From Hyphomicrobiales bacterium (GTDB taxonomy: Bacteria; Pseudomonadota; Alphaproteobacteria; Rhizobiales; Xanthobacteraceae): a stretch of 38,459 bases of DNA. A program made the translations under genes and the position numbers. The notes under the pieces were generated by a model that saw only the letters and a program-made list of their open reading frames with translations, searched no databases and was not told the DNA's origin. Of the stretch, positions 6,727 through 35,247 are shown piece by piece (positions within the stretch are counted from its first letter, which is position 1; each line of letters starts with the position of its first letter). The stretch is taken from contig PLTE01000108.1 of NCBI GenBank assembly GCA_003164375.1, forward strand, positions 1 through 38,459, written 5' to 3'.

Positions 6727-6771
6727 TCCAATACGTCCGGCTGCGAACGCAAAACGCCGAGGGAGGACACC

Positions 6772-7599: not shown

Positions 7600-7673
7600 A
7601 GCGACGGTCTCGGTGCGCTGGATAGGCGATAGTTCGTTGTCTCGTTGGTCGCCGGCAAAGCGACCCTGTCGCC

Positions 7674-8009
7674 TTACACGGCTTTGAAGTCGCCAGCGCC
7701 GGAATGCATTTCTGCTACGGCGCCGTATTCATCGAGGATTTGCGCGACGAGGTTCTTGGCTTTCGCGAGCGCCGCGCAGATGCGGTCCTTGCTCGGCGAT
7801 TCCGGCCAATCCGACAGCGTGATTTCCTGCTGATCGAGCGCGCTTCTCAAATTGCGCAGCTTCTCCAGCATATGCTGCGGCTCGGCATCGAGGAAATGGG
7901 CCTGCAACGTCCGCGTCAAAAAATGCAGGACATCACTGTCGTCGCTTTGATCGGTAAAACTCGGCACAGGCGCGCGTCCGGTAGCGATTGTTTTCGCCGC
8001 TTTCGACAT
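7674..8009 (-). CDS. hypothetical protein (111 aa)
   Basis: The track ORF 7674..8291 was trimmed to the ATG at 8009 (MSKAAKTIATGRAP...), which is preceded by AAGGAA. The longer form would overlap the response-regulator gene. No family recognised. Confidence 0.5.
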   Translation of the reverse strand: MSKAAKTIATGRAPVPSFTDQSDDSDVLHFLTRTLQAHFLDAEPQHMLEKLRNLRSALDQQEITLSDWPESPSKDRICAALAKAKNLVAQILDEYGAVAEMHSGAGDFKAV

Positions 8010-8241
8010 CAACCGTTCCTTGACGGGCGTCTGGCGCGCCGACGCCAAAACACCCCCACGCATTGCCCATCGGTTGCGGTCATACAGCAATTTGCGCCGA
8101 GGCGAGACCGGAATGCGGATTAGCCCTGTCAGAAATTTCCTGACATCTTTACGCGCAGTTTGACGCGCGATCAGCCTTCCGAGATTTTGTTTGAGCGCTA
8201 TCTTGCCGAAAAAGCCGGCAGTCACTGTTCCGGATCGTACT

Positions 8242-8910
8242 CTAGAGTTGCAGCCATCCTTCGGCGGATGCGTAGCGAACCAATTCCGCACGAGTTTTGA
8301 GTCCGAGCTTCTCGAGACCGCGCGCCTTGTACGTCTCGACGGATTTCACGCCGACATCGAGCCGGCTGGCGATTTCCTTGTTGGTGAAGCCCAGCGCCGC
8401 CATTTTCAACACCTCGGTCTCGCGGTCGGTCAGCGCCGGCGTTCCCCTTCGGCTTGACGCCTGCTTGGCATTAGGGCGCTTGCCGTCGAATAGGCGGCCG
8501 GCGATCGCTGGATCGACATAGGTGCCCCCGACCATGACGGTTCGGATGCCCTGCACGAGATTTTCCACCGCCGATCTTTTCAGGATATAGCCCCGGGCGC
8601 CGGCTTCCAGAGCCTGCTTCAGATAGGCTCTGTCTTCGTGCAGCGTGAGCACAAGCACGCGCAATTCCGGCAACTCGCCGATCAGCCGGCGGCAGAGTAC
8701 GATGCCGTTGAGCTCCGGCATCGATATATCGAGCACCGCCACATCGGGGCGTTTGTCGCGGATGACTTTCAGTGCGGCCAGACCGCTCGCGGCTTCGCCC
8801 GCCAGTTCGAAATCCTCTTCCGCCCGAACCAGATTGCGTAGCCCATCGAGGACGATGGGATGATCGTCGGCAAGCACGATGCGGATTTTTGTCATGTCGC
8901 TTTTTATCAT
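8242..8910 (-). CDS. NarL/FixJ (LuxR-type HTH) response regulator
   Basis: REC domain (RIVLADDHPIVLDGL, VAVLDISMP) plus a LuxR HTH (LTDRETEVLKMAALGFTNKEIASRL). ATGA overlap with the kinase gene at 8907-8910. Confidence 0.9.
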   Translation of the reverse strand: MIKSDMTKIRIVLADDHPIVLDGLRNLVRAEEDFELAGEAASGLAALKVIRDKRPDVAVLDISMPELNGIVLCRRLIGELPELRVLVLTLHEDRAYLKQALEAGARGYILKRSAVENLVQGIRTVMVGGTYVDPAIAGRLFDGKRPNAKQASSRRGTPALTDRETEVLKMAALGFTNKEIASRLDVGVKSVETYKARGLEKLGLKTRAELVRYASAEGWLQL

Positions 8911-10631
8911 GCCGGCGGCCTTTGACCGTCGAGAAGGATGCGGGCGAAGATCGTCGTGCCGGCGTTGATCGCGGATTCGATTTCAAGCGTGCCGCCGATC
9001 AGCGAGAGCCGCTCGCGCATGCCGTCGAGACCGAGGCCGCGATGCGCGCCCAGTTTTGCGCCTGCGGTGCCGACGTCGAAGCCGCAACCGTTGTCTTCGA
9101 TGATCACCTGCAGCGTCATGTCGGCGCGCCGGATAACGACGCTCACGCTGGACGGCCGCTGCGCGTGCTTGACGATATTCGTCAGCCCTTCCTGCACAAC
9201 CCGATAAACGGTCGTACCGATTTCGTCCGGCACCTCATCGAGACCAGTATCTTCACAATGAAAGTCGACGTCGGTGCCGCACCGCTCGCCCCAATCGGCG
9301 ATATAGCTCGCCAGTGCTTTCCGCAATCCCAGTTCGTCGATTGACGGCGGCCGCAGCTCCCATGCGATCCGATGCAGCGTCTTGCCCATCTCCTCCATGT
9401 TCTTGCGAACGAGGTGCAGACGGCCGCGCGCGGGCCCGGAAATCAGCGCATCGATCTCGTTAAGTTCCAGGACGGCGGCGATAAGGCTTTGTCCGGCCTG
9501 ATCGTGCAATTCATGCGACAGTCTCAAGCGCTCGTTTTCCTCCACCATCGATAAGTGGCGCCGCAAGCCGATCACCAAATGAGATTTTTTTTCAGTTTCC
9601 GTCAATAATCGCGCGTTGGCGCGCGACAGATCGCCCAGCAGGCGGTCGCGCTCGGCAAGCAAGCCCGCGGTCGGCAGTGCCCAGAACGAGGTAATGGTCA
9701 GAAACGCCTGCAAGCTCAAGATTTGCGACGACAGTTCGGGCAGCGGCAAAAACGGCTGGCCGATACCCAAAACGACGAAACTGGTGGCGACGAGTGCTGA
9801 GACAAGGGTGGTGGCAGTCGCGCCGATGAGGCCAAACCTCACCGTGGCAATCAATATTGCCGGACCGACGACGAAAGCGGTCGGTCTAAAATACACGGTG
9901 CCGACGCCGATGGCGAAGAACAATGCGAAGATCGCCGCGACCTCCGGCAGCCGCTCTCGCAGGCGCAGCATGCCCCATTGCCGCGACGTGACACTGACCA
10001 GGAACGGCACCACGATGATCATCGCGAGCGCGTGGCCGACGTACCAGTTGCGCCACATGGAAATCCAAGAAACTCCAGACGCCGGGCCAATGGCCGTGGC
10101 GCAAATGATCGTACTTGCGAATGGCGCGAGGCCGCCGGCAATGGCGACGAATATCAGTAAGTTTCGAAACGACGCGAGATTTAATGCGTTGATGCGACAG
10201 AGCCACAATAACGCAACGGCGGAGCCGATCTCGGCGGCGTTCGCGAGCGTCAGGATCCCCGACAGCGCCAGACTGTTGCCCTTGATCGTGCCAGCGAGAG
10301 TCATCGCGGCTAGGCCGCCCAAAAATATCGAGCCGTAATTGCCGAGGGTGCGAACGTGGCGCAGGAGGGCGGCGACGACAATGGCGTTCGATGCCCAAAG
10401 GCCGCCGAGGAACCGCGACGCATGCGCAAACTCGATGCTCAGGATCGAGGCCGCGAAAATTGCCGCTGGCAGCAGCAAATAATCGGCCAAAGTGAGATTT
10501 GACAACAGCTCGGGGGTGGCGAAGCCGTATCCGTGGAAAGCCTGCTCCCCCGAGGTCTGCAAGCGCGGCTTTGGCGCTGCGGCCGACGAACGGCCGCGCG
10601 TGAAGCTAGCGAACATATTAAAAAGCGGCAT
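8907..10631 (-). CDS. membrane sensor histidine kinase, HisKA_3 / NarX-DesK class
   Basis: The N-terminal ~330 aa are multi-pass hydrophobic (MASE1-like). The H-box is HELHDQAGQSL. HATPase motifs are TNIVKHA, EDNGCGF and GLGLDGMRERL. Confidence 0.85.
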   Translation of the reverse strand: MPLFNMFASFTRGRSSAAAPKPRLQTSGEQAFHGYGFATPELLSNLTLADYLLLPAAIFAASILSIEFAHASRFLGGLWASNAIVVAALLRHVRTLGNYGSIFLGGLAAMTLAGTIKGNSLALSGILTLANAAEIGSAVALLWLCRINALNLASFRNLLIFVAIAGGLAPFASTIICATAIGPASGVSWISMWRNWYVGHALAMIIVVPFLVSVTSRQWGMLRLRERLPEVAAIFALFFAIGVGTVYFRPTAFVVGPAILIATVRFGLIGATATTLVSALVATSFVVLGIGQPFLPLPELSSQILSLQAFLTITSFWALPTAGLLAERDRLLGDLSRANARLLTETEKKSHLVIGLRRHLSMVEENERLRLSHELHDQAGQSLIAAVLELNEIDALISGPARGRLHLVRKNMEEMGKTLHRIAWELRPPSIDELGLRKALASYIADWGERCGTDVDFHCEDTGLDEVPDEIGTTVYRVVQEGLTNIVKHAQRPSSVSVVIRRADMTLQVIIEDNGCGFDVGTAGAKLGAHRGLGLDGMRERLSLIGGTLEIESAINAGTTIFARILLDGQRPPA

Positions 10632-13849: not shown

Positions 13850-14695
13850 TTAGCGTCCTTCGCGCCGCGCCATAAACGCCAGCCGCTCGAACAGGTGCAC
13901 GTCCTGCTCGTTCTTGATGAGCGCGCCGTGCAGCGGCGGGATCAGCCGTTTCGGATCGCGCTCGCGGAGCGTCTCGACGGAAATATCCTCGACCATCAGA
14001 AGTTTCAGCCAGTCCAGCAATTCGGACGTCGAAGGCTTCTTTTTCATGCCGGGTACGTCGCGGATCTCGTAGAATAATTTCAGCGCTTCCGCGACCAGGC
14101 GATGCTTGATGTCGGGGAAATGCACCTCGATGATCGCCCGCATGGTGTCGGAATCGGGAAACCGGATGTAGTGGAAAAAGCAACGGCGCAGAAACGCGTC
14201 CGGCAATTCCTTCTCATTGTTGGATGTAATGACGACGATCGGGCGGCGGCGGGCATGGATTGTTTCGCCGGTCTCGTAAACGAAGAATTCCATGCGATCG
14301 AGTTCTTGGAGCAGATCGTTGGGGAATTCGATGTCGGCTTTGTCGATTTCGTCGATCAATAGCACCGGGCGCTGCTCGGCGACGAACGCCTCCCACAGCT
14401 TGCCGCGTTTGATGTAATTGCGGATGTCGTTGACGCGTGCGTCGCCCAACTGGCTGTCACGCAGCCGGGTGACCGCATCGTATTCGTAAAGCCCCTGCTG
14501 CGCCTTGGTGGTCGATTTGACGTGCCATTCGATCAGCGGCGCCGACAGCGCCTTGGCGATCTCGATCGCCAGTACGGTCTTGCCGGTGCCGGGCTCGCCC
14601 TTGACGAGAAGCGGGCGCTCCAGCGCGATCGCGGCATTGACCGCGACCTTGAGATCGTCGGTGGCGACATAGGCGCTGGTGCCTTCAAAGCGCAT
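13850..14695 (-). CDS. MoxR-like AAA+ ATPase
   Basis: Trimmed to the ATG at 14695 (MRFEGTSAYVATDDL...), with a GAGG 6 nt upstream. Walker A is GEPGTGKT and Walker B is VLLIDEIDK. The upstream 53 codons of the track ORF are not conserved-looking. Confidence 0.85.
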   Translation of the reverse strand: MRFEGTSAYVATDDLKVAVNAAIALERPLLVKGEPGTGKTVLAIEIAKALSAPLIEWHVKSTTKAQQGLYEYDAVTRLRDSQLGDARVNDIRNYIKRGKLWEAFVAEQRPVLLIDEIDKADIEFPNDLLQELDRMEFFVYETGETIHARRRPIVVITSNNEKELPDAFLRRCFFHYIRFPDSDTMRAIIEVHFPDIKHRLVAEALKLFYEIRDVPGMKKKPSTSELLDWLKLLMVEDISVETLRERDPKRLIPPLHGALIKNEQDVHLFERLAFMARREGR

Positions 14696-14809
14696 GAGAA
14701 ACCTCAAGTGGCCTTGGGATGAAATTAAAACACGTCGAACTTGGCGCTCACAAGGCGCCGGCGTCGATATCTGGCGCCGTTCCCTTAGGGCAGAAATGGT
14801 TTGGTGGCT

Positions 14810-14824
14810 CGGCAATTCTTGCCG
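14810..14824. promoter_or_regulatory. perfect dyad CGGCAA-TTC-TTGCCG, candidate enhancer for a sigma54 activator (FlbD/ftr-like)
   Basis: 6-3-6 palindrome centred about 82 nt upstream of the -24 GG of the flgE sigma54 promoter. The 16-mer GGCAATTCTTGCCGGC (14811-14826) recurs identically at 32287-32302. Confidence 0.55.
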
Positions 14825-14897
14825 GCAGGTCGGCATAACCGTACCGGAGGACACCGCACTCCAATCTTAAGCCTCTGATCTGACATGGCTAATCTCA

Positions 14898-14913
14898 TGG
14901 CACGCGGCTTGCT
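14898..14913 (+). promoter_or_regulatory. sigma54 (-24/-12) promoter for flgE-flgK-flgL
   Basis: TGGCACgcggcTTGCt is an exact match to TGGCAC-N5-TTGCW. It lies about 82 nt upstream of the flgE ATG. Confidence 0.75.
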
Positions 14914-20417: not shown

Positions 20418-21371
20418 TTACCCGGCACGATCGATCGGCGTTTCACTGCGGCGGGTTGCAGTTCTGACGAATATTGAATCGGCGGCGCAGGTCGCATTGC
20501 GGCCAAAATTGTCGGTAAAACGCGTGTCGACCAGATACTCGCCGGGATGCGCACCGACGAAGTCGCGGATCGCCTGCCGTTTCACGTCGCTGTCTTCGAC
20601 GACCAGATAATCGCCGGGCGACAGCACCGGGTGGAACTGTTCAAGCACGCCGATGACGTTGTGATGCGCGTCCTCGACGACGAGCCATGGATGCGGCTCC
20701 GAGTGGAGAAGGTCGGAATCGAACAGCCGTTCCGGGGCGGAACAATCGCCCTGATAGAATTTGACGTGCGGATACTCCATCTCGACCTTGACCCGGTCGA
20801 CCGAATGGACCTGCCCTTGGATGCCGCTCAGCGCCAGATTATCTGCAAACCAGACGGCACTTGCGCCGAGGCCGGATCCGATTTCGAAAATGGTTTGCGG
20901 GCGCAGCTCCGCGATCAGCGCCGGGTACATGGCGAAATCGAAGACGTTCTTCATCAGCGGCGTGCCGCGCCAGCGCATCAGTGACGGTGCGCCCTGGCAG
21001 GTCAGCAGCACGTCGAGGCCGAACTCGGTGCCGAACCGCGGATGATAATGGACACCCGATCGCTCGCGCTCGGAATACTCGACCAGATGGCCCTGCACCC
21101 AGCGATCGAGGAACAGCCGCAGGCGCATCAAGTCCCATTGCAGGCTAAGGTCTTGCGCGGGCGGCCGCGCGGCATTTTCGCGGACGCTGTCCTCCCACGA
21201 ACGGCTCGGATCGAAAGCGATCAAGCGCGTCAGGACGCGCGTAAACCAACTGTCGAAGATGCTGTGCAGGCCATTTTGTTCGCGCTCAACCTTGTCGCGC
21301 ATTTCACTCAAGAATTTGAGCGCAGCCGCCTTCAAGGCGTCGCCGGAAATCAAAGTTGCCTCGGTCGTCAT
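20418..21371 (-). CDS. CmcI-family (cephalosporin hydroxylase / rhamnosyl O-methyltransferase family) SAM-dependent methyltransferase
   Basis: WRGTPLMKNVFDFAMYPALIAELRPQTIFEIGSGLGASAVWFAD matches the CmcI core pattern (G.P..K...D...Y..L..E.KP..IIE.G...GGSA.W.A) from memory. A later VVEDAHH motif is also present. Confidence 0.7.
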   Translation of the reverse strand: MTTEATLISGDALKAAALKFLSEMRDKVEREQNGLHSIFDSWFTRVLTRLIAFDPSRSWEDSVRENAARPPAQDLSLQWDLMRLRLFLDRWVQGHLVEYSERERSGVHYHPRFGTEFGLDVLLTCQGAPSLMRWRGTPLMKNVFDFAMYPALIAELRPQTIFEIGSGLGASAVWFADNLALSGIQGQVHSVDRVKVEMEYPHVKFYQGDCSAPERLFDSDLLHSEPHPWLVVEDAHHNVIGVLEQFHPVLSPGDYLVVEDSDVKRQAIRDFVGAHPGEYLVDTRFTDNFGRNATCAADSIFVRTATRRSETPIDRAG

Positions 21372-21398: not shown

Positions 21399-22244
21399 CT
21401 AAGCACCGGCGAATTGCGACGCCAGATCGCCGCAAAACGTCATCGGGCCGACGTGGTTGAGCTTGCTTCCAAGATCCGCCCAGATCTCGCCGCCGAGTTC
21501 AATCCAGCGCTTGCAAAAGGCGAAATCCTCGCTGAGGTAGGTGCCGTCATCGGCGATCATGCATTCGAACAAAGCGAAGCGGTTGTCGCTTGCGGTCGCG
21601 GCATCGACGGAATGATCGCGTTTGTAGCGCAGCTGCGGATAATGTGCGCACATTTTTGCCAGCGCTTGGCGCCGGATCATGAGAAAACCGGTGCCGGCGT
21701 ACCGCACCTTGACGAAGCCACCTTTCTCGATGACGGCGTTGGGATCGTCGACCTCGAACACATATTTTAAGGCCGCGCCCGCCGCGTTGGGTCGCCCGCC
21801 CTCGATCGTCGTCTTCACCCTGTCCCAGTCGATCCGCTTGATCGGATAGATCGCGGCACACATGTCGGCGCCGCATTCGATCAGACGCAGCACTTGATCC
21901 GGCTCGAAGCCGATGTCGGCGTCGATAAACAACAGGTGGGTGGCATCCGGATCGTCCAGGAATTGGGAGATCAGGCTCGCCCGCGCCCGCGTGATCAGCG
22001 CGTCGCCGTCCTTGAACAAGATCTTGAGGTTGAAGTCGCTATAGGCGCGGATCAACTTTTGCAGCTTAAACAGCGAGGCTGCATAAAGCACCGAAATCTG
22101 TCCGCCGAAGCACGGTGTGGCGATGACGAGATTGACGGTGTTAGGGGCCGTGGCGGTTCCCGCCAGCTCGGCGGCGGTCCTGCCGGCGGGAGGCGCTGCG
22201 CGGGCGCCGCCGGCCTTGTGATCGGACTCCGAGGCAGTCGACAT
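21399..22244 (-). CDS. putative GT-A-fold (family 2-like) glycosyltransferase
   Basis: VNLVIATPCFGGQISVLYAASL...ITRARASLISQFLDDPDATHLLFIDADIGFEPDQVLRLI. This is the usual GT-A layout with a DxD motif (DAD). The exact family was not identified. It is probably co-transcribed with the methyltransferase downstream (27-nt gap). Confidence 0.5.
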   Translation of the reverse strand: MSTASESDHKAGGARAAPPAGRTAAELAGTATAPNTVNLVIATPCFGGQISVLYAASLFKLQKLIRAYSDFNLKILFKDGDALITRARASLISQFLDDPDATHLLFIDADIGFEPDQVLRLIECGADMCAAIYPIKRIDWDRVKTTIEGGRPNAAGAALKYVFEVDDPNAVIEKGGFVKVRYAGTGFLMIRRQALAKMCAHYPQLRYKRDHSVDAATASDNRFALFECMIADDGTYLSEDFAFCKRWIELGGEIWADLGSKLNHVGPMTFCGDLASQFAGA

Positions 22245-22339
22245 CGAGGTTCGTTCCTTCGTCGATCCGGCGCTGTCGGGTGTTGCGGCGCGACGGAGCG
22301 ACTTTGTAATTATGGTTAAGCAATAGCGAAGAGAAATGG

Positions 22340-22354
22340 TTAATGGCGACTTAA
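22340..22354. promoter_or_regulatory. CtrA-type box TTAA-N7-TTAA
   Basis: TTAAtggcgacTTAA is an exact match to the core consensus. It lies in the AT-rich divergent region between the GT-A gene (start 22244) and the flagellin gene (start 22629), about 100 nt upstream of the GT-A start. Confidence 0.55.
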
Positions 22355-22628: not shown

Positions 22629-24467
22629 ATGTCTGACATCACCTTGAGCAGTGGCATTCGGCAGAACTTGCTGGCCCTGCAGAACACGTCCAACGACTTG
22701 AATACCACGCAGGAACAGCTTGCGACCGGTAAGAAGGTCAATACGGCGTTCGACAATCCGACCTCCTATTTCACCTCGCAGTCGCTGACCAACCGGTCCA
22801 ACGACCTGAGCGCGCTTCTCGACCAGATCGGTCAGGCGCAGCAGACGTTGAACGCGGCCAACGACGGCCTCACCGGCTTGACGAGCCTGCTCGAACAGGC
22901 GCTGTCAACAGCGCAGCAGGCGCAACAGGCGACCACGGGCACCGTGACCTATAGCGGCACGCAAACCGGCAGCGCAATTGTCGCCGACACGACGCAAGCC
23001 GTCAGCACGACCAGTTTCGCCAGTGCGGTCAGCGCTTCAACGGCTTCGGTGCAGACCAAGTCGACGTTCGACTCCGCCGGCATCGGCCAGCTGACGAGCG
23101 GCGATACCCTGACCTATTCGCTCGCCGGCACCACGGTGACGGCCACGTTCGGCGCCGCGACCGATACGACCACCAACACCTTCAGCAACGTCGCCGGCCT
23201 GATCAGCGTTCTGCAGAGCGGCACCGGCGCCAGCGGCAACCTCAGCGCTGTGGCGAGCATCACCAACGTCGGCGGCAACGTCCAGGTGCTCGGTGACGAT
23301 CTCACCCACAACCTGACGACAAGCGCCACCAGCACCAACCTCACCGCCGGCAATTTTACAAGTAACACCTCGGCTGCCACGCTTGGCGATGCGCTGACGA
23401 TTTCTGACGGTGAAGGTCACACGTCGTCATTCTACTACGTTGCCGCCAATGCCGTTTCTGCAAGCGACACCTTCACGAGCTCGGCCAATCTTGTCAGCGC
23501 CATCAGCGGCTCCAACCTGGGCAGCACGGTCACAGCGACCGTTCCAAGCTCCGGCGCCAACAATGGCAAACTCGTGCTCAGCAGCCCGGATGGGGCCATC
23601 ACAGTCGGTGGAGCTTTCGGCAACACCGATCTGGGTCTGTCCTCGACGGCTTACAAAAACAACTACAACTCGACATTGGCAGGGCTTGCCGCCGACAGCA
23701 CGCTGACGATCCAGGTCGGCACCGACGCGGTAAATACGCTGACCTTCGGCACCGGCAACGGCCAGATCTCGACCCTGGCGGGGCTCAATAGCGCGCTTTC
23801 GGCCATCGGAGATATCTCCGCATCGGTCAACTCGCAGGGCAAGATCGTGTTGGCGCCGACAAGCTCGAACATCGTCACCATCGGCGGCACCGCCGGGACG
23901 GTGAGCTCGCTCGGCTTCTCCAGCGGCGTCACTACGCCGACTGCGACGGTCGTCACCCCGAGCTCGACCCGCGCCACGCTGCAGAGCAACTATAATGCCC
24001 TGCTGACGCAGATCGATCAGCTCGCCGGGGACTCGTCCTATAACGGCGTCAACCTGCTCGCCGGCAACAACCTGACGGTCAACTTTAATGAGAACGGCAC
24101 CAGCGGTCTGACGATCGGCGGCGTCAACTTCAGCTCGTCGGGGCTTGGACTGTCGGCGATCAGCGGCAACGGTTTCCAGGACAACACCAACATTGCGTCC
24201 ACGGAAACCGCGATCAACAACGCAATCACCAACGTGCGGGCCCAAACCGAGACGTTCGGCACCAACTCGTCGACCATCTCGACCCGCCAGACGTTCGAAA
24301 CCAACCTGATCAACACCCTGCAGACGGGCGCCAGCAATCTCGTGCTGGCCGATCAGAACCAAGCTAGCGCCAACTTGCTGACCGAGCAAACCCAGCAGCA
24401 GTTGGAAATCTCCGCACTGTCCATCGCCAATCAGGCGGACCAGTCGGTGCTCAAGCTGTTCGGCTAA
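22629..24467 (+). CDS. fliC: flagellin (large 612-aa type, as in Bradyrhizobium thick-flagellum FliC)
   Basis: N-terminus MSDITLSSGIRQNLLALQNTSNDLNTTQEQLATGKKVNTAFDNPTSYFTSQSL. C-terminus QASANLLTEQTQQQLEISALSIANQADQSVLKLFG. The central domain is Ser/Thr-rich and repetitive. The RBS is GAAGGG, and an intrinsic terminator follows. Confidence 0.9.
   Translation: MSDITLSSGIRQNLLALQNTSNDLNTTQEQLATGKKVNTAFDNPTSYFTSQSLTNRSNDLSALLDQIGQAQQTLNAANDGLTGLTSLLEQALSTAQQAQQATTGTVTYSGTQTGSAIVADTTQAVSTTSFASAVSASTASVQTKSTFDSAGIGQLTSGDTLTYSLAGTTVTATFGAATDTTTNTFSNVAGLISVLQSGTGASGNLSAVASITNVGGNVQVLGDDLTHNLTTSATSTNLTAGNFTSNTSAATLGDALTISDGEGHTSSFYYVAANAVSASDTFTSSANLVSAISGSNLGSTVTATVPSSGANNGKLVLSSPDGAITVGGAFGNTDLGLSSTAYKNNYNSTLAGLAADSTLTIQVGTDAVNTLTFGTGNGQISTLAGLNSALSAIGDISASVNSQGKIVLAPTSSNIVTIGGTAGTVSSLGFSSGVTTPTATVVTPSSTRATLQSNYNALLTQIDQLAGDSSYNGVNLLAGNNLTVNFNENGTSGLTIGGVNFSSSGLGLSAISGNGFQDNTNIASTETAINNAITNVRAQTETFGTNSSTISTRQTFETNLINTLQTGASNLVLADQNQASANLLTEQTQQQLEISALSIANQADQSVLKLFG
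23076..23918 (+). repeat. three divergent copies of the same module forming the flagellin central domain
   Basis: The clearest copy is DSTLTIQVGTDAVNTLTFGTGNGQISTLAGLNSALSAIGDISASVNSQGKIVLAPTSSNIVTIGGTAGTVSSLGF. Two weaker copies start at GDTLTYSLAGTTVTATFG and GDALTISDGEGHTSSFYY. Confidence 0.6.
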
Positions 24468-24648: not shown

Positions 24649-25389
24649 GTGGCCCTAAAGATCGAGCTCAAGCCTAACGAACGCATCCTCCTCGGCGATT
24701 GCGTCGTCACCAATAACGGCCAGCGCACGCGTCTCATGGTCGAGGGGAAGGTGCCCATTCTGCGTGAAAAGGACATCATGTCGCTGGGCAGCGCCAATAG
24801 CCTGGCGAAACTCATCTATCTCGCTGTGCAGTTCATCTACACGGCCAAGCGACCGCAGGACCATCACGCGCTTTACGTCCGGCTGGCGGATGAATTTGTG
24901 AAACGCGCGCCCAGTGCGAAGCCATATATTGAGAGCATCAACAATCGAATCTTAACAGGCGAGCCGTATAAGGCGCTAAAGGAAGCGCGCAAGCTCATTG
25001 CCTACGAAAAGGAGCATCTCGACATGCATTACGCCAGCAACGCCTACGCGAAGACCGCCATTGACACGGCAGGCCCGCGCGAACTCGAGGCGAATTTGCT
25101 TTTGCAAGCTGCGGCGAAGTTGCAGGCTGTTCATGATTCGTGGCGCGATAAGCCGTCCGGCCTCGACGATGCAATCCTGTACAATCGCCGGCTTTGGACG
25201 GTATTCCTCGACGCGGTGACGAGCGAAGGCAACAGGTTGCCGGCCGCGGTCCGCGAGAATATCAGGCGGCTCGGCGTTTTCGTCATGGGGGAGACGTTCT
25301 CGCTGATGACCAATCCGAAGCCGGATCACCTGACGTCGATCATCAAGATCAATCGCGGCATCGCCGCCGGCCTGCGCGGCAAGGCGTAA
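24649..25389 (+). CDS. flbT: FlbT-FlaF in-frame fusion ORF (flagellin translation regulator pair)
   Basis: GTG at 24649 with AAGGA 7 nt upstream. The FlbT-like part is (M)ALKIELKPNERILLGDCVVTNNGQRTRLMVEGKVPILREKDIM...AKLIYLAVQFIY. It runs with no stop codon into a FlaF-like part, MHYASNAYAKTA...PRELEANLLLQAAAKLQ...YNRRLWTVFLDAV...LPAAVRENI. The track ORF starts at an upstream GTG (24571). Confidence 0.75.
   Translation: MALKIELKPNERILLGDCVVTNNGQRTRLMVEGKVPILREKDIMSLGSANSLAKLIYLAVQFIYTAKRPQDHHALYVRLADEFVKRAPSAKPYIESINNRILTGEPYKALKEARKLIAYEKEHLDMHYASNAYAKTAIDTAGPRELEANLLLQAAAKLQAVHDSWRDKPSGLDDAILYNRRLWTVFLDAVTSEGNRLPAAVRENIRRLGVFVMGETFSLMTNPKPDHLTSIIKINRGIAAGLRGKA
25024..25389 (+). CDS. flaF: possible independently translated FlaF (internal start within the fusion frame)
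   Basis: ATG at 25024 with a strong AAGGAG 9 nt upstream, exactly where stand-alone FlaF proteins begin (MHYASNAY...). Same frame as the flbT part. Confidence 0.4.
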   Translation: MHYASNAYAKTAIDTAGPRELEANLLLQAAAKLQAVHDSWRDKPSGLDDAILYNRRLWTVFLDAVTSEGNRLPAAVRENIRRLGVFVMGETFSLMTNPKPDHLTSIIKINRGIAAGLRGKA

Positions 25390-25494: not shown

Positions 25495-27042
25495 TCAGGC
25501 GGCGCGCGGGACATCCAGTCGAAGCCGCCCGCGCAGATGCGGTATGCGACTTACATCCATCCTTGCCGCGAGCATCCGCATATAAATCAGCTCTTCTTTG
25601 GTTGCTATTGCAAAATCCGCGAATTCGCGTTGCCCGTCGTGGAGATCTGCGTCCGACAGCGACGTTTCGAAAAGATCGAGCCAGCCGGATTCTTCCACGT
25701 CGCCGTCCGCGCCCTCATGAAACAGCATCTTTTGCCGATCGCGAATGCAAGTCGGTAGCTCGGAAGGATACAGGTCATAGAGCGCTCGTAACGGCGCCTT
25801 GCCGATCGGGGCATTGCTCGTTTGTCGCACCAAACAGGATTCATCGAGCTCACTCGCATAATCGACGACCGTTTGATCGAGGAACGGCTCGCGTATTTCG
25901 AGTTGGAATTGCATCGAACAGCGATCGACCCGTTGAAGATTGGCGCGATGCATCATGCCCAAACATTGCTTCTGCATATCGCGGCCGCCGCCGTCAGGCC
26001 GGGTAAAAGCCCGTTCGAGGGGCGAATAGCCTGCGAATAATTCATCGGCGCCTTCGCCGCACAGCGCGACGCGGAAACCGTCTTGATGTATGCGCTGCGA
26101 GAGAAGATAGGTGTAAAGACTAGGACGGATCACCGAGGGCTCGAACGTCTCCACGGTATCAACGACCGTCTCGATGAGGGGGAGCGTCTTGGTGCAATGC
26201 GCTTCAACGGCCACCTCGCGCAGGTTGAGACCGGTCTCCTCCGCATAATGTTTGGCGTAAAGATGATCGGGCGCATTGCACCCGACCGCGATGTAGCCCG
26301 GCATGGCCGGAGAAAATCTGCGCGCGTAATGCATAACAAGCGTGCTATCGATGCCGCCGCTGAACAAGGCCGCGACCGGAAGGTTCGCGGGCACGCGGAT
26401 GCGCACGGCTTCCGATAGAATTCGGTCCAGTTCCTGGGGCGAGGCGGCGCTCGAGGTTGTTGGGGATGGCAGGTTGTAATGGCGCCCGCAGAAATCACGG
26501 GTCAGCAAATGGCCAGGCGGCAACAATAAGACGGCGTCGCCATCGGTCGCATCCAGGAGCGGTCGGATTTCCGAGCAAAACAGAAAGCCCTTGGGCGACT
26601 GGATGAGATAAAGCGGCTTTACGCCGAAAGGGTCGCGCGCGGCCAAGAACTCGCCGGTCGCCGTATCGATCGCAACGAAGGCATACATGCCGGCCAGGCG
26701 TTTGATCCCGGCTTGGCCCCACGCTCGCAGCACATTCGCGACAACTTCCGTGTCGCATTGCGTGCGGAAACGCACGCCGAGCGCCTCCAATTCCCGACGT
26801 AGAACGTCGTGATTGTAGATCTCGCCATTGAACGAGACGAGAAAGCGCTCATCGAAGGAGGCTTGCGGCTGCGCGCCGTTTGCCGCGTCTACAATGCGCA
26901 AGCGGCGTGTGCACATCGCGGTGTTGTTTCCGACCATGACGAGTGGGTCGGTGACGTCGCCCCGATGCAGCATACCCGCGATCAACTGCCGGACTGCCGA
27001 TCCGGCGTCATCCCAATCGATAGCAACCGCTATGCCGCACAT
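25495..27042 (-). CDS. asparagine synthase (glutamine-hydrolysing) family amidotransferase
   Basis: N-terminal MCGI (Cys2 Ntn nucleophile), PP-loop motif FSGGIDSTLV, and 515 aa of AsnB-like layout. Confidence 0.85.
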   Translation of the reverse strand: MCGIAVAIDWDDAGSAVRQLIAGMLHRGDVTDPLVMVGNNTAMCTRRLRIVDAANGAQPQASFDERFLVSFNGEIYNHDVLRRELEALGVRFRTQCDTEVVANVLRAWGQAGIKRLAGMYAFVAIDTATGEFLAARDPFGVKPLYLIQSPKGFLFCSEIRPLLDATDGDAVLLLPPGHLLTRDFCGRHYNLPSPTTSSAASPQELDRILSEAVRIRVPANLPVAALFSGGIDSTLVMHYARRFSPAMPGYIAVGCNAPDHLYAKHYAEETGLNLREVAVEAHCTKTLPLIETVVDTVETFEPSVIRPSLYTYLLSQRIHQDGFRVALCGEGADELFAGYSPLERAFTRPDGGGRDMQKQCLGMMHRANLQRVDRCSMQFQLEIREPFLDQTVVDYASELDESCLVRQTSNAPIGKAPLRALYDLYPSELPTCIRDRQKMLFHEGADGDVEESGWLDLFETSLSDADLHDGQREFADFAIATKEELIYMRMLAARMDVSRIPHLRGRLRLDVPRAA

Positions 27043-27231: not shown

Positions 27232-28134
27232 TCAGGCCAGCAGATCGAGCAACGAGCCCGACGAGCCGCTGCTCGCCAAGAGGGTTTCGGCAGTGCCGCC
27301 GGTCTGCAGCGCGAGGGCGGAATTAAACAGGACGGCCGCGGGGGAACTGGCGGCAGTGCTGGTGGACGACCCTGTCGAACTGCTTGCGGCGCTCGTGGAC
27401 GATCCTGCCGCGCTCGAGGAACTTGAAGAAGTGGAACCGGAGGCGCTGGAGGAACTGGAAGAGTTGGCAGCGCTGGAAGTGGGGGCGGTCGGCTGGAAAC
27501 TGGAGTTCTGGGCGCCGAAGCCGACGCTTGATGCAAAAACGCCCCCGACCGAGATCGAATCGGTGAGATTTTTGCCGGTGAGAACCAGGTCGCCGCCGGC
27601 ATTAAGCGACGCCGTCACCTGGGCATTGGCGGCAACGTTTGGATTGTTGATGGCATTGATCAGATCCTGAACCGTATCCGTGCCCGTCGACGCGAAGGTC
27701 GTCGTGTTGGTGCCGTCACTGACGGTGATCGTGCCATTCTGGGGAATCCCGAGCGTTAACAGCGAGGTACTCGCGGAAAGCGGCACCGTGCCGGTTCCGG
27801 TTGCCGGTGCGCCGGTCGTTGGAGCGTTGGACGTAGACCCGCTGGAACTGGCTTGTGAGGCTTGCACTGCGCTTTGCAATGCGGCGGTAAGTTGGGCTTG
27901 GACGCGCGTTTGCGCTTCCTTGGTCGCAATGGCCGCCAAGCCCGACGCTTCGTTGCTCACGGCGCTGCCTAATCCTGTAATCAGCGCATCGCTTAACGAG
28001 GAAGTCTGATTCTCGGTCTGAACCTGGCTCCAATAGGTCTGGTCCTGTTGCCAGAACGTCTGGCTGCTTCCTATGCTTCCGATACTCATGGACTGCGACG
28101 CCTTGCCAGACCGGTCTCCCCTGCGGTCATTCAT
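27232..28134 (-). CDS. orphan Ser/Thr-rich flagellar-cluster protein carrying one hook/flagellin-type module and a poly-Ser tract
   Basis: 300-aa ORF; an alternative ATG lies at 28089 (MSIGSIGSS...). Residues ~121-207 align closely with FlgE module 1. A poly-Ser segment covers residues ~219-264. No signal peptide is visible. Function unknown. Confidence 0.6.
   Translation of the reverse strand: MNDRRGDRSGKASQSMSIGSIGSSQTFWQQDQTYWSQVQTENQTSSLSDALITGLGSAVSNEASGLAAIATKEAQTRVQAQLTAALQSAVQASQASSSGSTSNAPTTGAPATGTGTVPLSASTSLLTLGIPQNGTITVSDGTNTTTFASTGTDTVQDLINAINNPNVAANAQVTASLNAGGDLVLTGKNLTDSISVGGVFASSVGFGAQNSSFQPTAPTSSAANSSSSSSASGSTSSSSSSAAGSSTSAASSSTGSSTSTAASSPAAVLFNSALALQTGGTAETLLASSGSSGSLLDLLA
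27343..27480 (-). repeat. poly-Ser low-complexity coding tract
   Basis: TSSAANSSSSSSASGSTSSSSSSAAGSSTSAASSSTGSSTSTAASS in the orphan protein. The plus strand shows the complementary GAA/GGA-rich periodicity. Confidence 0.8.
27514..27774 (-). repeat. single copy of the module in the orphan protein
   Basis: NGTITVSDGTNTTTFASTGTDTVQDLINAINNPNVAANAQVTASLNAGGDLVLTGKNLTDSISVGGVFASSVGFG is closest to FlgE copy 1. The similarity extends into the following GAQNSSFQPT versus GAGQNSFSPT. Confidence 0.7.
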
Positions 28135-28182: not shown

Positions 28183-28190
28183 TTAACCAT
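28183..28190. promoter_or_regulatory. CtrA half-site-type 8-mer TTAACCAT
   Basis: Exact TTAACCAT in the divergent region between the Ser-rich orphan gene (minus) and TPR-GT 1 (plus). Confidence 0.35.
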
Positions 28191-28285
28191 CATGGCCGAC
28201 TTTGCGGTAAAGGCACCGTGGGCGGGAGCCGCTCCTCGGCGGTATGGTGCTCCCGTCGCCAGTCCGAGGCTGCAGGCAGGATTCC

Positions 28286-30190
28286 ATGGCGAAGCAGGCG
28301 ACCGCGAGGCTTTCGCAACTCGGCCGCTCTTTCGAGCAGGGGCTGGCACTGCACCGGGGCGGACGGCTCGCTGAGGCCGACCGAATCTATGAAGCCATTC
28401 TCGCGGCCGATCCGCGCCACTTCGATGCGCTGCATCTGTCCGGCGTTCTCAGAAATCAACAGGGCCGGTCTGTCGAGGCTCTGCATTTGGTTTCGGCGGC
28501 ATTGAACATCAAGTCCGGATCGGTGGACGCGCTTGTGAGTCATGGCGTGATCCTTGATGCGCTCAAGCGCCATGAAGAAGCGCTGGCGAGCTTCGATCGA
28601 GCGCTGGCGGCGCGTGCCGGCGACGCTACCTTGCACTATAACCGCGGCAATTCGCTCAAAGGTCTCGGCCGCTACGCGGAGGCGTTGGCGAGCTACGATC
28701 GCGCGCTCGCGCTTGCGCCGGATCTCGCCCCCGCCCACCACAATCGCGGCAGTACCTATGCGGAGCTCGATCGGAACGATGAGGCGCTGGCGAGCTTCGA
28801 CCAGGCGCTTTTGCTGTGCCTTGAGCGGGCCGGCATCAAGATGGAGAATGGCATCTCCCTGGCAACGATTGATCGCGGCGATGAATTGTTTGCAAGGCTC
28901 CGTCAAGCGCTCGCCGCCGATCCCAACAGTGCCGACATACTGAGCAATCGCGGCAAGGTTCTCAACCGGTTCAAACGCTACCATGAGGCGATTGCGTGCT
29001 TTGACGCGGCGCTGGCGCTTCGCCCCGACCAAGCGGACACGCTCTGTCATCGCGGCGACGCATGCGCAGGGATCGGCCGCTACGACGATGCGTTTGCGAA
29101 TTTCGCGGAGGCGCTTTGCGTTGCGCCGAATTTCGCCGATGCGCATCTTAAGCGCGGCAATGCTTTGGTCGAGTTGAACCGAATGGACGAAGCGATGCGC
29201 AGCTTTAGCGCCGCTGTAGCGATCAAGCCGGACAACGCGGACGCGAACTTCAACGAAGCGCTGACCCGGCTGTGCCTGGGCGATTTTCGCCAGGGTTGGA
29301 AAAAGTATGAATATCGGTGGGAAAGGGCTGAATGGGCGAAGGACCGGCCAAATTATCCGCGTCCGATGTGGCGCGGAGAGCAGGAGCTGCAGGGCAAGAC
29401 AATTCTTCTTGTCGCCGAACAAGGCTTTGGCGACGCCATCCAATTCGCACGCTACGCACCGCTGTTAGCAGCGCTCGGCGCAAAGGTGTTGCTTGGCGTC
29501 CGGTCCCCGCTCACTGCACTAATGGCAACCGTACCCGGTGTCTCGCAAGTGATAAGCGCGGGTGAGACTCTGCCCCCCTTCGATCTCTACTGCCCGCTGT
29601 TGAGCCTGCCATTAGCGTTCGGAACCGAACCGGCAACGATACCGGCCACGGTCCCCTATCTGCGAGCTTCTGAAGAGCGCATCGCCAAATGGCGCGGCAG
29701 ATTACCGGACAGTGGCCGGCTGCGAATCGGAATTTGCTGGGCCGGCATAAGCGGGCATCCCAACAATCACCGACGTTCGATACCGCTCGAGCGCTTCGCC
29801 ACGATATTGTCGGCGCCGGGCGTCGACTTCGTCAGTCTGCAAAAGGATGTCGGCGAGTCGGACGCGACGATCCTGAGCGCACACGGCGTAAATCAGCTTG
29901 GGCAGGAATTCGCGGATTTTGCCGATACCGCCGCCGTCGTCGCGATGCTCGATCTCGTGATCTGCGTCGACACTTCGGTCGCGCATCTTGCCGGCGCGAT
30001 GGGCAAGGCCGTCGGCGTGCTGATACCGTTTTCGCCGGACTTCAGGTGGATGCTCGACCGCACCGACAGCCCTTGGTATCCGACCATGCGGCTGTTTCGG
30101 CAACCCGCGATCGGCGACTGGGACGGACCGCTCGATCGGCTGCGCCAGGAACTTTCCGCTCTCGGAAGCCGTCCGCTCAAGCCGCGGTGA
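28286..30190 (+). CDS. TPR-repeat protein fused to a GT9-like (heptosyltransferase-fold, GT-B) glycosyltransferase domain
   Basis: ATG at 28286 (MAKQATARLSQLGRSFEQGLALHRGGRLAEADRIYEAIL...). There are multiple 34-aa TPR units (…A..Y..AL...P....A..NRG...). The C-terminal domain carries KTILLVAEQGFGDAIQFARY, RIGICWAG and DTSVAHLAGAMGK...SPWYPTMRLFRQ. Confidence 0.75.
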   Translation: MAKQATARLSQLGRSFEQGLALHRGGRLAEADRIYEAILAADPRHFDALHLSGVLRNQQGRSVEALHLVSAALNIKSGSVDALVSHGVILDALKRHEEALASFDRALAARAGDATLHYNRGNSLKGLGRYAEALASYDRALALAPDLAPAHHNRGSTYAELDRNDEALASFDQALLLCLERAGIKMENGISLATIDRGDELFARLRQALAADPNSADILSNRGKVLNRFKRYHEAIACFDAALALRPDQADTLCHRGDACAGIGRYDDAFANFAEALCVAPNFADAHLKRGNALVELNRMDEAMRSFSAAVAIKPDNADANFNEALTRLCLGDFRQGWKKYEYRWERAEWAKDRPNYPRPMWRGEQELQGKTILLVAEQGFGDAIQFARYAPLLAALGAKVLLGVRSPLTALMATVPGVSQVISAGETLPPFDLYCPLLSLPLAFGTEPATIPATVPYLRASEERIAKWRGRLPDSGRLRIGICWAGISGHPNNHRRSIPLERFATILSAPGVDFVSLQKDVGESDATILSAHGVNQLGQEFADFADTAAVVAMLDLVICVDTSVAHLAGAMGKAVGVLIPFSPDFRWMLDRTDSPWYPTMRLFRQPAIGDWDGPLDRLRQELSALGSRPLKPR

Positions 30191-32318: not shown

Positions 32319-32326
32319 TTAACCAT
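32319..32326. promoter_or_regulatory. CtrA half-site-type 8-mer TTAACCAT upstream of fliX
   Basis: Exact TTAACCAT 20 nt upstream of the fliX ATG. The position is very close to the start codon, so its role is uncertain. Confidence 0.3.
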
Positions 32327-33597: not shown

Positions 33598-35247
33598 GTG
33601 GCATCCCGGCGTCATGCACCGATGAACGACCGCTTGCAGGTTTCGCAATCGAATATTTCGCGCCTATTGCGACGGGCGCTGCGCGCTCACGACGATGGCG
33701 ACTCGGCGAAGGCGGAGCGGCTCTATAACGCCGTCATCGCGCGGCATCCCGGCGACTTCGATGCGCTCCATGGTCTCGGCCGGCTTCATTATCAACGTGG
33801 GCGCTTCGACACCGCGCTCGTGCTCATTCAGTCGGCGCTGAAAATCGATCCCGATCGCGTCGACGGATTTTCGAGCCTCGGGTTGGTGTTTCATTTGCTG
33901 CGTCGGTTCAAGGACGCGCTCGCGAGCTATGATGCGGGATTGCGCCTTGCGCCGGACAATGCGGAGCTCCACAACCGGCGCGGGGTGGCGCTGCTCGAAC
34001 TGCGCCGTCCGCAGGAGGCGCTTGCCGACTTCGAAAGCGCGCTTGCCGTCGATCCCGATCACCGCGATGCGCTCGGCAATTACGGCAATGCCTTGCTCAA
34101 GCTCAATCGTCCCGCCGAGGCGCTTGTGGTCTACGATCGGGCGTTGGCGATGGTGCCCGATAACGCCCAGCTCTTGACCAACCGCGCCGTCGCCTTGCGC
34201 CGGCTCGATCGGCCGCACGAAGCGTTGATGAGCGCAAGCCGCGCGCTGGTCAGCCGGCCGGATTTTGCCCAGGCGCGGTTCGTCGAGAGCGTGGCGCGTC
34301 TGACGCTCGGCGACTTTGCCGCCGGCTGGCGCGGCTATGAAGCGCGTTGGTCGGTCGGGCTCCTGGCATCGCAGCGTCGCAACTTCGCTGAGCCACTGTG
34401 GCTTGGCCAAGAAACGCCTAAAATGTCACTCGCGGGGAAGACCATACTGTTGCACGCCGAACAGGGCTCCGGCGACACGATCCAATTCGTGCGCTATGCG
34501 CGGTTGGTGGCGGCGTGCGGAGCGAAAAAAGTTATTCTTGAAGTTCAGCGCGAACTGGCCCGTCTGCTGCCGGGTATCGCCGGCGTTGACGCAGTGATCG
34601 CGCGCGGTGCGCCATTGCCGCCGTTCGATTGTCATTGTCCGCTGCTCAGTCTGCCGCTCGCCTGCGCAACGGAGCAAGCAACGATCCCGGCGGACGTTCC
34701 CTATATCGCGCCGCCGCCGGAAGCGGAGATTCGCCGCTGGCGCGATCGCTTGCCGCGGCATCGGCCGCTGGTCGGCGTGGTCTGGTCGGGGGACCGTTCG
34801 CACGATAACGACCTTAATCGCTCGATCCGCATCGAGGCGCTGTTGCCGCTGCTCGATTTGCCCGAGTTCTGCTTTGTCAGTCTGCAGCATGCCGTGCGCG
34901 AAGAGGACATTCCAATTTTACAGAGCCGGCCGGACATCATTCGCATCGGCGAGGAGTTTTGCGATTTCGCCGATACGGCTGCGGCGCTCGCCGGGTTGGA
35001 CGCGGTGATCTCAGTCGATACCGCGGTCGCCCATTTGGCGGCGGCGATGGGCAAGCCGCTGTTTCTGCTGCTACCCTATGCTGCGGATTTCCGCTGGCTG
35101 CGCGAGCGGCACGATAGCCCCTGGTATCCGACTGCGCGGCTCTACCGACAGGCAGAATTCGGCGATTGGGATCGCGCGATCGGTGCGTTGTCGCAGGATC
35201 TGATGCGCGCAAGCTTCTTTGCCTGGGGCCGCCAGCGATCAGCGTGA
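33598..35247 (+). CDS. TPR-repeat + GT9-like glycosyltransferase, paralog 2
   Basis: Same architecture as 28286..30190. It carries TPR units, L.LGDF..GW..YE.RW, KTILLHAEQGSGDTIQFVRY, VGVVWSG and DTAVAHLAAAMGK...SPWYPTARLYRQ. The start is a GTG at 33598 or an ATG at 33622. Confidence 0.75.
   Translation: MASRRHAPMNDRLQVSQSNISRLLRRALRAHDDGDSAKAERLYNAVIARHPGDFDALHGLGRLHYQRGRFDTALVLIQSALKIDPDRVDGFSSLGLVFHLLRRFKDALASYDAGLRLAPDNAELHNRRGVALLELRRPQEALADFESALAVDPDHRDALGNYGNALLKLNRPAEALVVYDRALAMVPDNAQLLTNRAVALRRLDRPHEALMSASRALVSRPDFAQARFVESVARLTLGDFAAGWRGYEARWSVGLLASQRRNFAEPLWLGQETPKMSLAGKTILLHAEQGSGDTIQFVRYARLVAACGAKKVILEVQRELARLLPGIAGVDAVIARGAPLPPFDCHCPLLSLPLACATEQATIPADVPYIAPPPEAEIRRWRDRLPRHRPLVGVVWSGDRSHDNDLNRSIRIEALLPLLDLPEFCFVSLQHAVREEDIPILQSRPDIIRIGEEFCDFADTAAALAGLDAVISVDTAVAHLAAAMGKPLFLLLPYAADFRWLRERHDSPWYPTARLYRQAEFGDWDRAIGALSQDLMRASFFAWGRQRSA

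Follow-up and report, generated by a model that had tools for sequence, protein, structure and literature searches.

A FlmG-like protein combining a TPR array and a GT9-like GT-B domain in the flagellar gene cluster of an uncultured Xanthobacteraceae bacterium

A stretch of 38,459 nucleotides from an uncultured Hyphomicrobiales bacterium (Xanthobacteraceae in GTDB; assembly GCA_003164375.1, contig PLTE01000108.1), referred to here as the window, carries a flagellar gene cluster in which one gene (28286..30190, + strand) encodes a protein of 634 amino acids (aa) composed of a tetratricopeptide repeat (TPR) array and a C-terminal domain resembling glycosyltransferases (GT) of family GT9. The question raised by this locus is whether the protein glycosylates a flagellar protein and, if so, whether it belongs with the flagellin glycosyltransferase FlmG of Caulobacter or represents a different solution. 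An earlier note made from the DNA sequence had described the gene as encoding a bipartite TPR and GT9-like GT-B protein within a flagellar cluster and as a candidate protein glycosyltransferase, and this is supported by the domains, the predicted fold, the catalytic-type residues and the gene order in relatives. The favoured explanation, to which we assign a probability of about 0.6, is that the protein is a soluble, cytoplasmic, TPR-guided O-glycosyltransferase of flagellar proteins built on the FlmG design. In the proposed mechanism the TPR superhelix would dock a substrate of flagellar export, for which the 612-aa Ser/Thr-rich flagellin encoded in the same cluster is the most likely candidate, the GT9-like GT-B domain would move a sugar from a nucleotide-activated donor onto Ser/Thr hydroxyls, and glycosylation would precede export of the substrate by the flagellar type III system.

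Regarding the extent of the gene, the enclosing open reading frame (ORF) on the + strand spans 28244-30190, an AGGA precedes the ATG at 28286, and the same start was chosen by gene callers in four independent metagenome assemblies that contain an identical 634-aa product. All three peptides quoted in the earlier note (GFGDAIQFARY, DTSVAHLAGAMGK and SPWYPTMRLFRQ) are present in the translation. Between about aa 15 and 340 Pfam detects five to seven TPR stretches assigned to several TPR families (best E 1e-37), and the full-length AlphaFold2 model, computed with 40 homologs as input (predicted local distance difference test, pLDDT, 90.6; predicted template modelling score 0.84), has 20 paired helices at aa 2-351 and then two Rossmann-like halves at aa 360-627, so that the TPR reading of the N-terminal ~350 residues (array at aa 1-351, bases 28286-29338) is borne out by both. 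In the model the TPR superhelix would comprise about 10 repeats. The N-terminus is polar and the single hydrophobic peak falls in high-pLDDT residues of the modelled Rossmann core, for which reason the protein should be cytoplasmic.

The C-terminal domain (~aa 352-627, bases 29339-30166, as delimited by AlphaFold2 and Foldseek) forms an intact GT-B when modelled alone (pLDDT 88.7). Because the TPR array dominates a Foldseek search with the full-length model, in which SPINDLY and OGT are found on top, the search was repeated with the GT domain alone. The best match was then Escherichia coli WaaF (1psw, E 4e-8, template modelling (TM) score 0.61), followed by the Veillonella GT9 structure 3tov, TibC (4rap, 4rb4) and WaaC (2h1h, E 1.6e-5); GT9 matches outrank every other GT-B family, an OGT homolog (2vsn) appearing at rank 42 with E 1e-3, and identity in the GT9 structural alignments is 11-17%. 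The heptosyltransferase-like GT-B signature proposed in the earlier note is thus real and backed by Foldseek, and a C-terminal fold other than that of a glycosyltransferase, which would have spoken against the proposal, was not found. At the sequence level the signature is weak: Pfam assignment, which was clear for the TPR arrays, gave a match to Glyco_transf_9 (PF01075) of 18.8 bits at aa 545-575, under the gathering score of 22, and the NCBIfam heptosyltransferase I model (TIGR02193) scores 16.6 bits, below its cut-off of 185.3. Neither phmmer nor a clean 10-sequence GT-domain profile detected sequence relatives of the domain in the PDB, an earlier profile that still held TPR columns having been drowned by TPR proteins and therefore uninformative. 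The term GT9-like GT-B is right as a description of the modelled fold, with the Pfam score staying below the family threshold.

The residues of catalytic type are strongly conserved. G382-D383, R497-S498, D562, T563, H567 and W597-Y598 are invariant in 40-50 homologs of the protein, and the corresponding motifs GD, RS, DT..H and PWYP stand out against a mean column identity of ~40%. The GD was aligned to the GD of GT9 enzymes, and GD and DT..H would fall on the catalytic Asp and donor-site residues of WaaC. The invariance of these residues across the homologs argues for a predicted active site in working order.

Regarding the relation to Caulobacter, FlmG is a characterised flagellin O-glycosyltransferase with TPR and GT-B domains whose TPR domain binds flagellins (PMC7591256), and the FlmG proteins of Caulobacter crescentus and Brevundimonas subvibrioides are of the same class (PMC7591256; bioRxiv 10.1101/2022.03.25.485807). 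FlmG is 596 aa long, has been described as "GT-B" (PMC7591256), takes its sugar from CMP-pseudaminic or CMP-legionaminic acid and has been described as confined to the Caulobacterales. For the identification of an ortholog, published flmG primers (eLife supplement) were joined into a 47-nt stretch and scanned against genome contigs. An exact 27-mer from the primers had no match in these contigs, and a pattern with degenerate third codon positions detected a locus of Caulobacter vibrioides OR37 (L004), with a 598-aa ORF agreeing with the primers (MARKSAL.., FQIPGTRWSGQDLRGK), and 11 other loci. In BLASTP the window protein and the OR37 FlmG ortholog align colinearly through the TPR and GT domains (27% identity over 517 aa, E 1e-38), and their GT domains have in common the motifs GW..YE.R, W.G..L.GKT, EQGxGD, FV.LQ, D.AA, LAGA.G, PWYP and GDW. 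The colinear alignment over both domains indicates that, by sequence, the GT-B domain of FlmG is the same GT9-like domain in a more diverged form; PF01075 has no match in the FlmG ortholog even at E 0.1, which explains why FlmG has been described only as GT-B. The suggestion of the earlier note that a TPR-fused GT9 would be a different solution from FlmG is therefore rejected, and on these alignments the window protein is a distant relative of FlmG and not a separate invention. To our knowledge FlmG is the sole TPR and GT-B flagellin glycosyltransferase studied so far.

Further likenesses to FlmG are the similar size (596-598 versus 634 aa), the order of the domains (TPR, then GT-B), the cytoplasmic location, predicted for the window protein, and the setting of the genes next to flbT/flaF and flagellin, the OR37 flmG gene adjoining flbT/flaF. 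Thus two features of the FlmG class, homology over both the TPR and the GT-B domain and a neighbourhood of flagellin and flagellin-regulator genes, are found here; specific orthology to FlmG is not, the window protein being 33-52% identical to non-flagellar members of the wider family from other phyla, 27-31% identical to FlmG, and no nearer to FlmG than non-flagellar members are. FlmG also differs in being encoded by one gene, compared with two to three paralogs in clusters of the type seen in the window, and in belonging to the Caulobacterales, the host in the present case being an uncultured member of the Xanthobacteraceae.

The flagellar setting is conserved in close relatives. In the window the genes are ordered FlgE, FlgK, FlgL-like, CmcI-like methyltransferase, a 281-aa protein, flagellin, FlbT-FlaF, AsnB-like amidotransferase, a Ser/Thr-rich protein, the TPR-GT gene, a 150-aa gene, FlgJ, FlgI, FliX, DksA, a TPR-GT paralog, FlgH, FlgA, FlgG and FlgF, and these neighbours confirm that the gene lies inside a flagellar cluster. 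Of the homologs on long contigs, the three nearest are encoded at the same place, between flagellin, FlaF and AsnB-like genes on one side and the 150-aa gene, FlgJ, FlgI and FliX on the other. A metagenome scan yielded 80 loci with relatives of the protein; core flagellar genes were detected in 13 of the 17 most similar loci (GT-domain identity >=53%), three of the four exceptions being contigs of <4.2 kb, and in five of the remaining 63, of which L050, L054 and L063 group with the paralog in a neighbour-joining tree and L046 and L048 fall in a sister clade. In three of the related loci (L017-L019) the TPR and GT parts are separate ORFs, L019 showing TPR, GT and GT in succession at 6461-10243. 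Frameshifts set apart the otherwise near-identical loci L017 and L018, one of which has both flagellin and the AsnB-like gene split; for this reason the split ORFs are suspected to be assembly errors, and two-polypeptide TPR/GT systems were not taken as real.

The paralog (33598/33622..35247, + strand, 541-549 aa), recognised by PF01075 and by BLASTP against the window protein and FlmG, is located 3.4 kb downstream of the target gene between the dksA-like gene and flgH. PF01075 matches it with 24.9 bits over ~32 residues, above the 22-bit cut-off, and it is 44% identical to the target protein over 503 aa and 26% identical to the OR37 FlmG ortholog (E 4e-34). Orthologs of the paralog are found at the same position in eight loci (L019, L023, L024, L027, L029, L050, L054 and L063) and form their own clade, and flagellar clusters of relatives often have two or three TPR-GT genes.

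Regarding the acceptor, the flagellin of the window (22629..24467, + strand) has 612 aa with 30% Ser+Thr and a long central region, and was assigned by Flagellin_N, Flagellin_C, NCBIfam flagellin subfamilies and composition; it is the favoured and most likely acceptor. A rather improbable variant is that the protein is an active FlmG-like enzyme whose acceptor is another nearby flagellar export substrate and not the filament flagellin, with the paralogs dividing the acceptors among themselves. The candidates would be the 35% Ser/Thr protein encoded at 27232..28134 (- strand), the enlarged 673-aa hook protein and the 503-aa FlgL-like protein. The first of these (285-300 aa) was detected by PF07196 (Flagellin_IN) and by its composition, contains long poly-Ser/Thr runs, is present in one or two copies in related loci and is encoded divergently from the target, with which it shares a 150-bp promoter region and beside whose orthologs it recurs; it may possibly be a secreted flagellar protein and an alternative acceptor. 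The presence of two to three TPR-GT paralogs per cluster with differing TPR arrays, and the location of the paralog beside basal-body genes and not beside flagellin, would also fit such a division. This variant is opposed by the binding of flagellins by the TPR domain of the characterised relative FlmG (PMC7591256), by the Ser/Thr content of the window flagellin itself and by the lack of any family for the Ser/Thr-rich protein in Pfam and NCBIfam beyond the Flagellin_IN motif.

Against a flagellar role of any kind, it could be argued that the protein has a general or regulatory function as an OGT-like cytoplasmic protein glycosyltransferase, its position in the cluster reflecting co-regulation or history, which we consider unlikely. 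The family is enormous and mostly non-flagellar: exhaustive HMMER searches with the GT domain, counted as 50%-identity cluster representatives, retrieved 41,810 members at E<=1e-3 and 20,066 at E<=1e-30, and the full-length fold resembles OGT and SPINDLY. The non-flagellar members that were sampled are in unrelated contexts, the neighbours of three of them including MetW-like, MFS, BamA, ABC-F and RNase D genes and, in one case, a gene for a TPR-GT41 protein of OGT type. What stands against an OGT-like role is that the flagellar position is kept down to ~53% identity over many loci and in distinct clades, that candidate glycan-modifying genes are co-conserved and that FlmG provides a precedent. 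Regarding OGT and SPINDLY (GT41) themselves, the likeness consists in a TPR superhelix supplying protein substrates to a GT-B domain at the C-terminus, and these are the best full-length structural matches; PF13844 (Glyco_transf_41) has no match in the window protein at E up to 1 and the GT domain is nearer to GT9 once the TPRs are removed. The resemblance is convergent or very distant and does not denote a common family.

By sequence, FlmG is one divergent branch of this very large family and the window protein belongs to its mainstream. Among the 11 other loci detected with the degenerate primer pattern, nine hold genes of the broad family; they belong to betaproteobacteria, Casimicrobiaceae, Tardiphaga and unclassified proteobacteria. 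The proteins encoded there are 29-52% identical to the window protein and mostly nearer to it than FlmG is, and no flagellar genes were seen at their loci. L002 and L007 gave no match and L009 repeats the Caulobacter sequence. The L009 contig (DATLXF010000058.1), labelled as a Bradyrhizobium sp. metagenome-assembled genome, gives tblastn statistics for FlmG and FlbT/FlaF identical to those of L004 and is probably mis-binned Caulobacter sequence. Many family members (P0264-P0413) are 1,000-3,100 aa long with two to six stretches matching the GT-domain query, and at some family loci three to four copies stand in tandem (L012, L059 and L093); we know of no giant or tandem member that has been characterised.

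It is very unlikely that the GT domain is inactive and that the protein serves flagellin or flagellar assembly as a TPR scaffold or chaperone, a possibility brought up by the frequency of TPR proteins among flagellar and type III chaperones, by NCBIfam matches to SycD/LcrH and SctY that lie under their cut-offs and by the sub-threshold score for PF01075, and opposed by the invariant GD, DT..H, RS and PWYP motifs and the confidently modelled, intact GT-B. A conventional GT9 heptosyltransferase acting on lipopolysaccharide (LPS) core or another glycolipid and simply encoded beside flagellar genes is scarcely credible, for although WaaF and WaaC are among the best structural matches and JGI labels fragments of some relatives 'ADP-heptose:LPS heptosyltransferase', the heptosyltransferase I score is 16.6 bits against 185, the domain is joined to a TPR array of 350 aa, LPS genes are missing from the window and from the loci of relatives, and the protein is homologous to the proven protein glycosyltransferase FlmG. 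The earlier note would have been undermined by homologs generally located in LPS loci; those of close relatives are flagellar, and no LPS genes were found beside the three distant non-flagellar members sampled.

Regarding regulation, the sequence TTAACCAT, which matches the Caulobacter consensus for a CtrA half-site, is found at 28183..28190 (+ strand), 96 nt upstream of the ATG of the target gene and within the 150-bp divergent intergenic region common to this gene and that of the Ser/Thr-rich protein. It occurs four times in the window (22312-22319, 22336-22343, 28183-28190 and 32319-32326) compared with 0.32 expected, and all four copies are in flagellar intergenic regions, upstream of the flagellin and 281-aa genes, upstream of the target and Ser/Thr-rich genes and at fliX; a full TTAA-N7-TTAA site is present at 22340-22354. 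No sigma-54 promoter was detected at the target gene, the sole good match in the window to a sigma-54-type -24/-12 motif (TGGCACGCGGCTTGC, 14898-14912, + strand) being ~30 nt upstream of the flgE start.

Returning to a FlmG-type glycosyltransferase of flagellar proteins as the preferred explanation, several points weigh against it. We infer the acceptor, the catalytic activity and the co-regulation of the protein, and the same is true of every function given to it and to its close relatives; the acceptor could be another protein of the cluster, and co-regulation with the flagellar genes would operate through a predicted CtrA-type site that is a consensus match only. The PF01075 match is sub-threshold and covers 31 residues. 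Since most of the family of 41,810 clusters is non-flagellar, membership alone predicts no flagellar acceptor, and no flagellar genes were found at ~45 relatives with <=50% identity. The neighbour-joining tree in which flagellar-linked copies form clades of their own, a point in favour of the explanation, carries no support values, and the GT domain of FlmG has a median score of 85 bits against flagellar-linked and 80 bits against non-flagellar members. On these medians a specific proximity of FlmG to the flagellar clades was rejected and orthology is not claimed; the flagellar linkage could have arisen twice.

The donor sugar could not be read from the window, as the earlier note had held. 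No nonulosonic-acid (NeuB/PseI-type), heptose or deoxyhexose biosynthesis genes were detected in the window and the adjoining 9 kb to the contig end (~47 kb), the search having been extended rightward as far as the 83-kb contig reaches. The whole stretch from the housekeeping genes left of the cluster to this contig end is free of sugar-biosynthesis genes. The donor-half motifs VDTSVAHLAG and RS are kept as in GT9; the broad family, including the target and the paralog, has VD(T/S)xVAHLAGAxGK and RS at positions where FlmG has FSNATINLAGACGA and QF, so that FSNATIN and QF in FlmG stand where the target has VDTSVAH and RS. Because FlmG has replaced donor motifs that are kept here, and because no nonulosonate genes are nearby, the donor is probably not the CMP-pseudaminic or CMP-legionaminic acid used by FlmG. 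A broader reading, which we regard as doubtful, is that flagellar TPR-GTs of Xanthobacteraceae use a non-nonulosonate sugar and that the broad family is a large toolkit for cytoplasmic protein O-glycosylation. The donor would then be a common nucleotide sugar, for which the intact GT9 donor motifs make ADP-heptose the obvious choice, and construction or diversification of the glycan would fall to the several paralogs; the family of ~41,800 clusters would constitute an unrecognised bacterial counterpart of OGT on a GT9 scaffold, of which FlmG would be a derived branch with a switched donor.

Several other genes of the cluster may bear on a glycan. The asparagine-synthase-type glutamine amidotransferase (AsnB-like; 25495..27042, - strand), assigned by Pfam and by TIGR01536 (279.5 bits, cut-off 267.1), has copies with 81-86% identity in the flagellar clusters of six related loci (L017, L018, L020, L024, L025 and L029) and could modify a glycan, for example by amidation of an acidic sugar, or serve the flagellum in another way. 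The 281-aa hypothetical protein (21399..22244, - strand) has a DxD-like FIDADIG motif (LLFIDADIGFEPD) and is conserved beside flagellin, which it adjoins with 78-85% identity in every related locus with enough flank. It has no match in Pfam or NCBIfam; a match to phrog_1574 (3e-32) and weak GT-A hints from the PDB and PHROG searches (GlfT2, E 1.5; a PHROG glycosyltransferase, E 0.04) make it a possible second, GT-A-like transferase, and its >5,200 homologs are all named 'hypothetical'. Between it and the flgL-like gene is a gene for a protein resembling CmcI and rhamnosyl O-methyltransferases (20418..21371, - strand; PF04989, E 9e-15; NF045824 far under cut-off), which is present in L013, L024, L025 and L029 and missing from L017-L020, and which may be an accessory enzyme and candidate sugar or glycan O-methylase. 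The AsnB-like, CmcI-like and DxD genes are consistent with a modified and possibly multi-sugar glycan, the assignments themselves being insecure, and together with the paralogs they suggest a multi-step glycan or several acceptors.

FlbT and FlaF are factors of flagellin translation and secretion, and in the window their domains are found in a single ORF (24571/24649..25389, + strand; Pfam FlbT at aa 29-149, FlaF at aa 156-268). This fused ORF is called as one 246-aa product and is also single in L019 and L020; in Caulobacter flbT and flaF are two separate genes. At the edge of the cluster an AAA ATPase (13850-14854, - strand) with a weak match to the MadB family is 81-86% identical to the product encoded at 6-404 of the OR37 locus, ~1.4 kb from Caulobacter flmG, which is an unusually high conservation across orders in a neighbourhood common to both loci.

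Regarding other known systems, WaaC and WaaF (GT9) provide the nearest solved folds and have in common with the window protein the N-terminal G-D and a C-terminal motif of the type D-T/S-x-x-x-H-L-A; the window protein differs in its TPR fusion, in its flagellar and not LPS setting and in its presumed protein acceptor. TibC and AAH are autotransporter heptosyltransferases with a GT9-like GT-B fold that modify Ser residues of proteins in the cytoplasm. Structures of this group (BAHT; 4rap, 4rb4) appear from the fourth Foldseek rank onward with E 8.5e-6 and TM scores of 0.49-0.53, and no sequence similarity of TibC to the target was detected in the PDB by phmmer or the GT-domain profile; TibC lacks TPRs, is a dodecameric iron protein and recognises autotransporter passenger repeats. 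The Maf proteins (MAF_flag10) have an analogous role in cytoplasmic flagellin modification, are encoded in flagellar loci and in some cases also use a TPR, and differ in a GT-A catalytic fold unrelated to the GT-B considered here. Neither the target nor any other part of the window gave a MAF_flag10 match.

The window belongs to an environmental assembly (ENA ERZ28653482), and near-identical members of its FlgI cluster and of the 281-aa protein carry the label Xanthobacteraceae bacterium. GTDB Xanthobacteraceae also holds Bradyrhizobium-type bacteria. In the literature searched nothing was found on FlmG-like or TPR-GT9 enzymes in flagella of Bradyrhizobium, Rhodopseudomonas or Hyphomicrobiales, and a review of rhizobial motility only speculates on glycosylation of the subpolar flagellum of Bradyrhizobium. 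Judged by sequence, what is new in comparison with FlmG is the retention of ancestral GT9 donor-half motifs, the presence of several copies per cluster and the occurrence in a different bacterial order, the locus revealing that FlmG homologs are a conserved component, with more than one copy, of the flagellar clusters of abundant uncultured Xanthobacteraceae of soil and wood. If confirmed, this would widen the FlmG class in taxonomy and chemistry and provide a testable handle on whether and how the flagella of these bacteria are glycosylated. FlmG-type enzymes are of interest for engineered cytoplasmic O-glycosylation (PMC7591256), for which variants of different donor specificity would be useful, and a huge family labelled only 'tetratricopeptide repeat protein' would, if confirmed, gain a working functional hypothesis.

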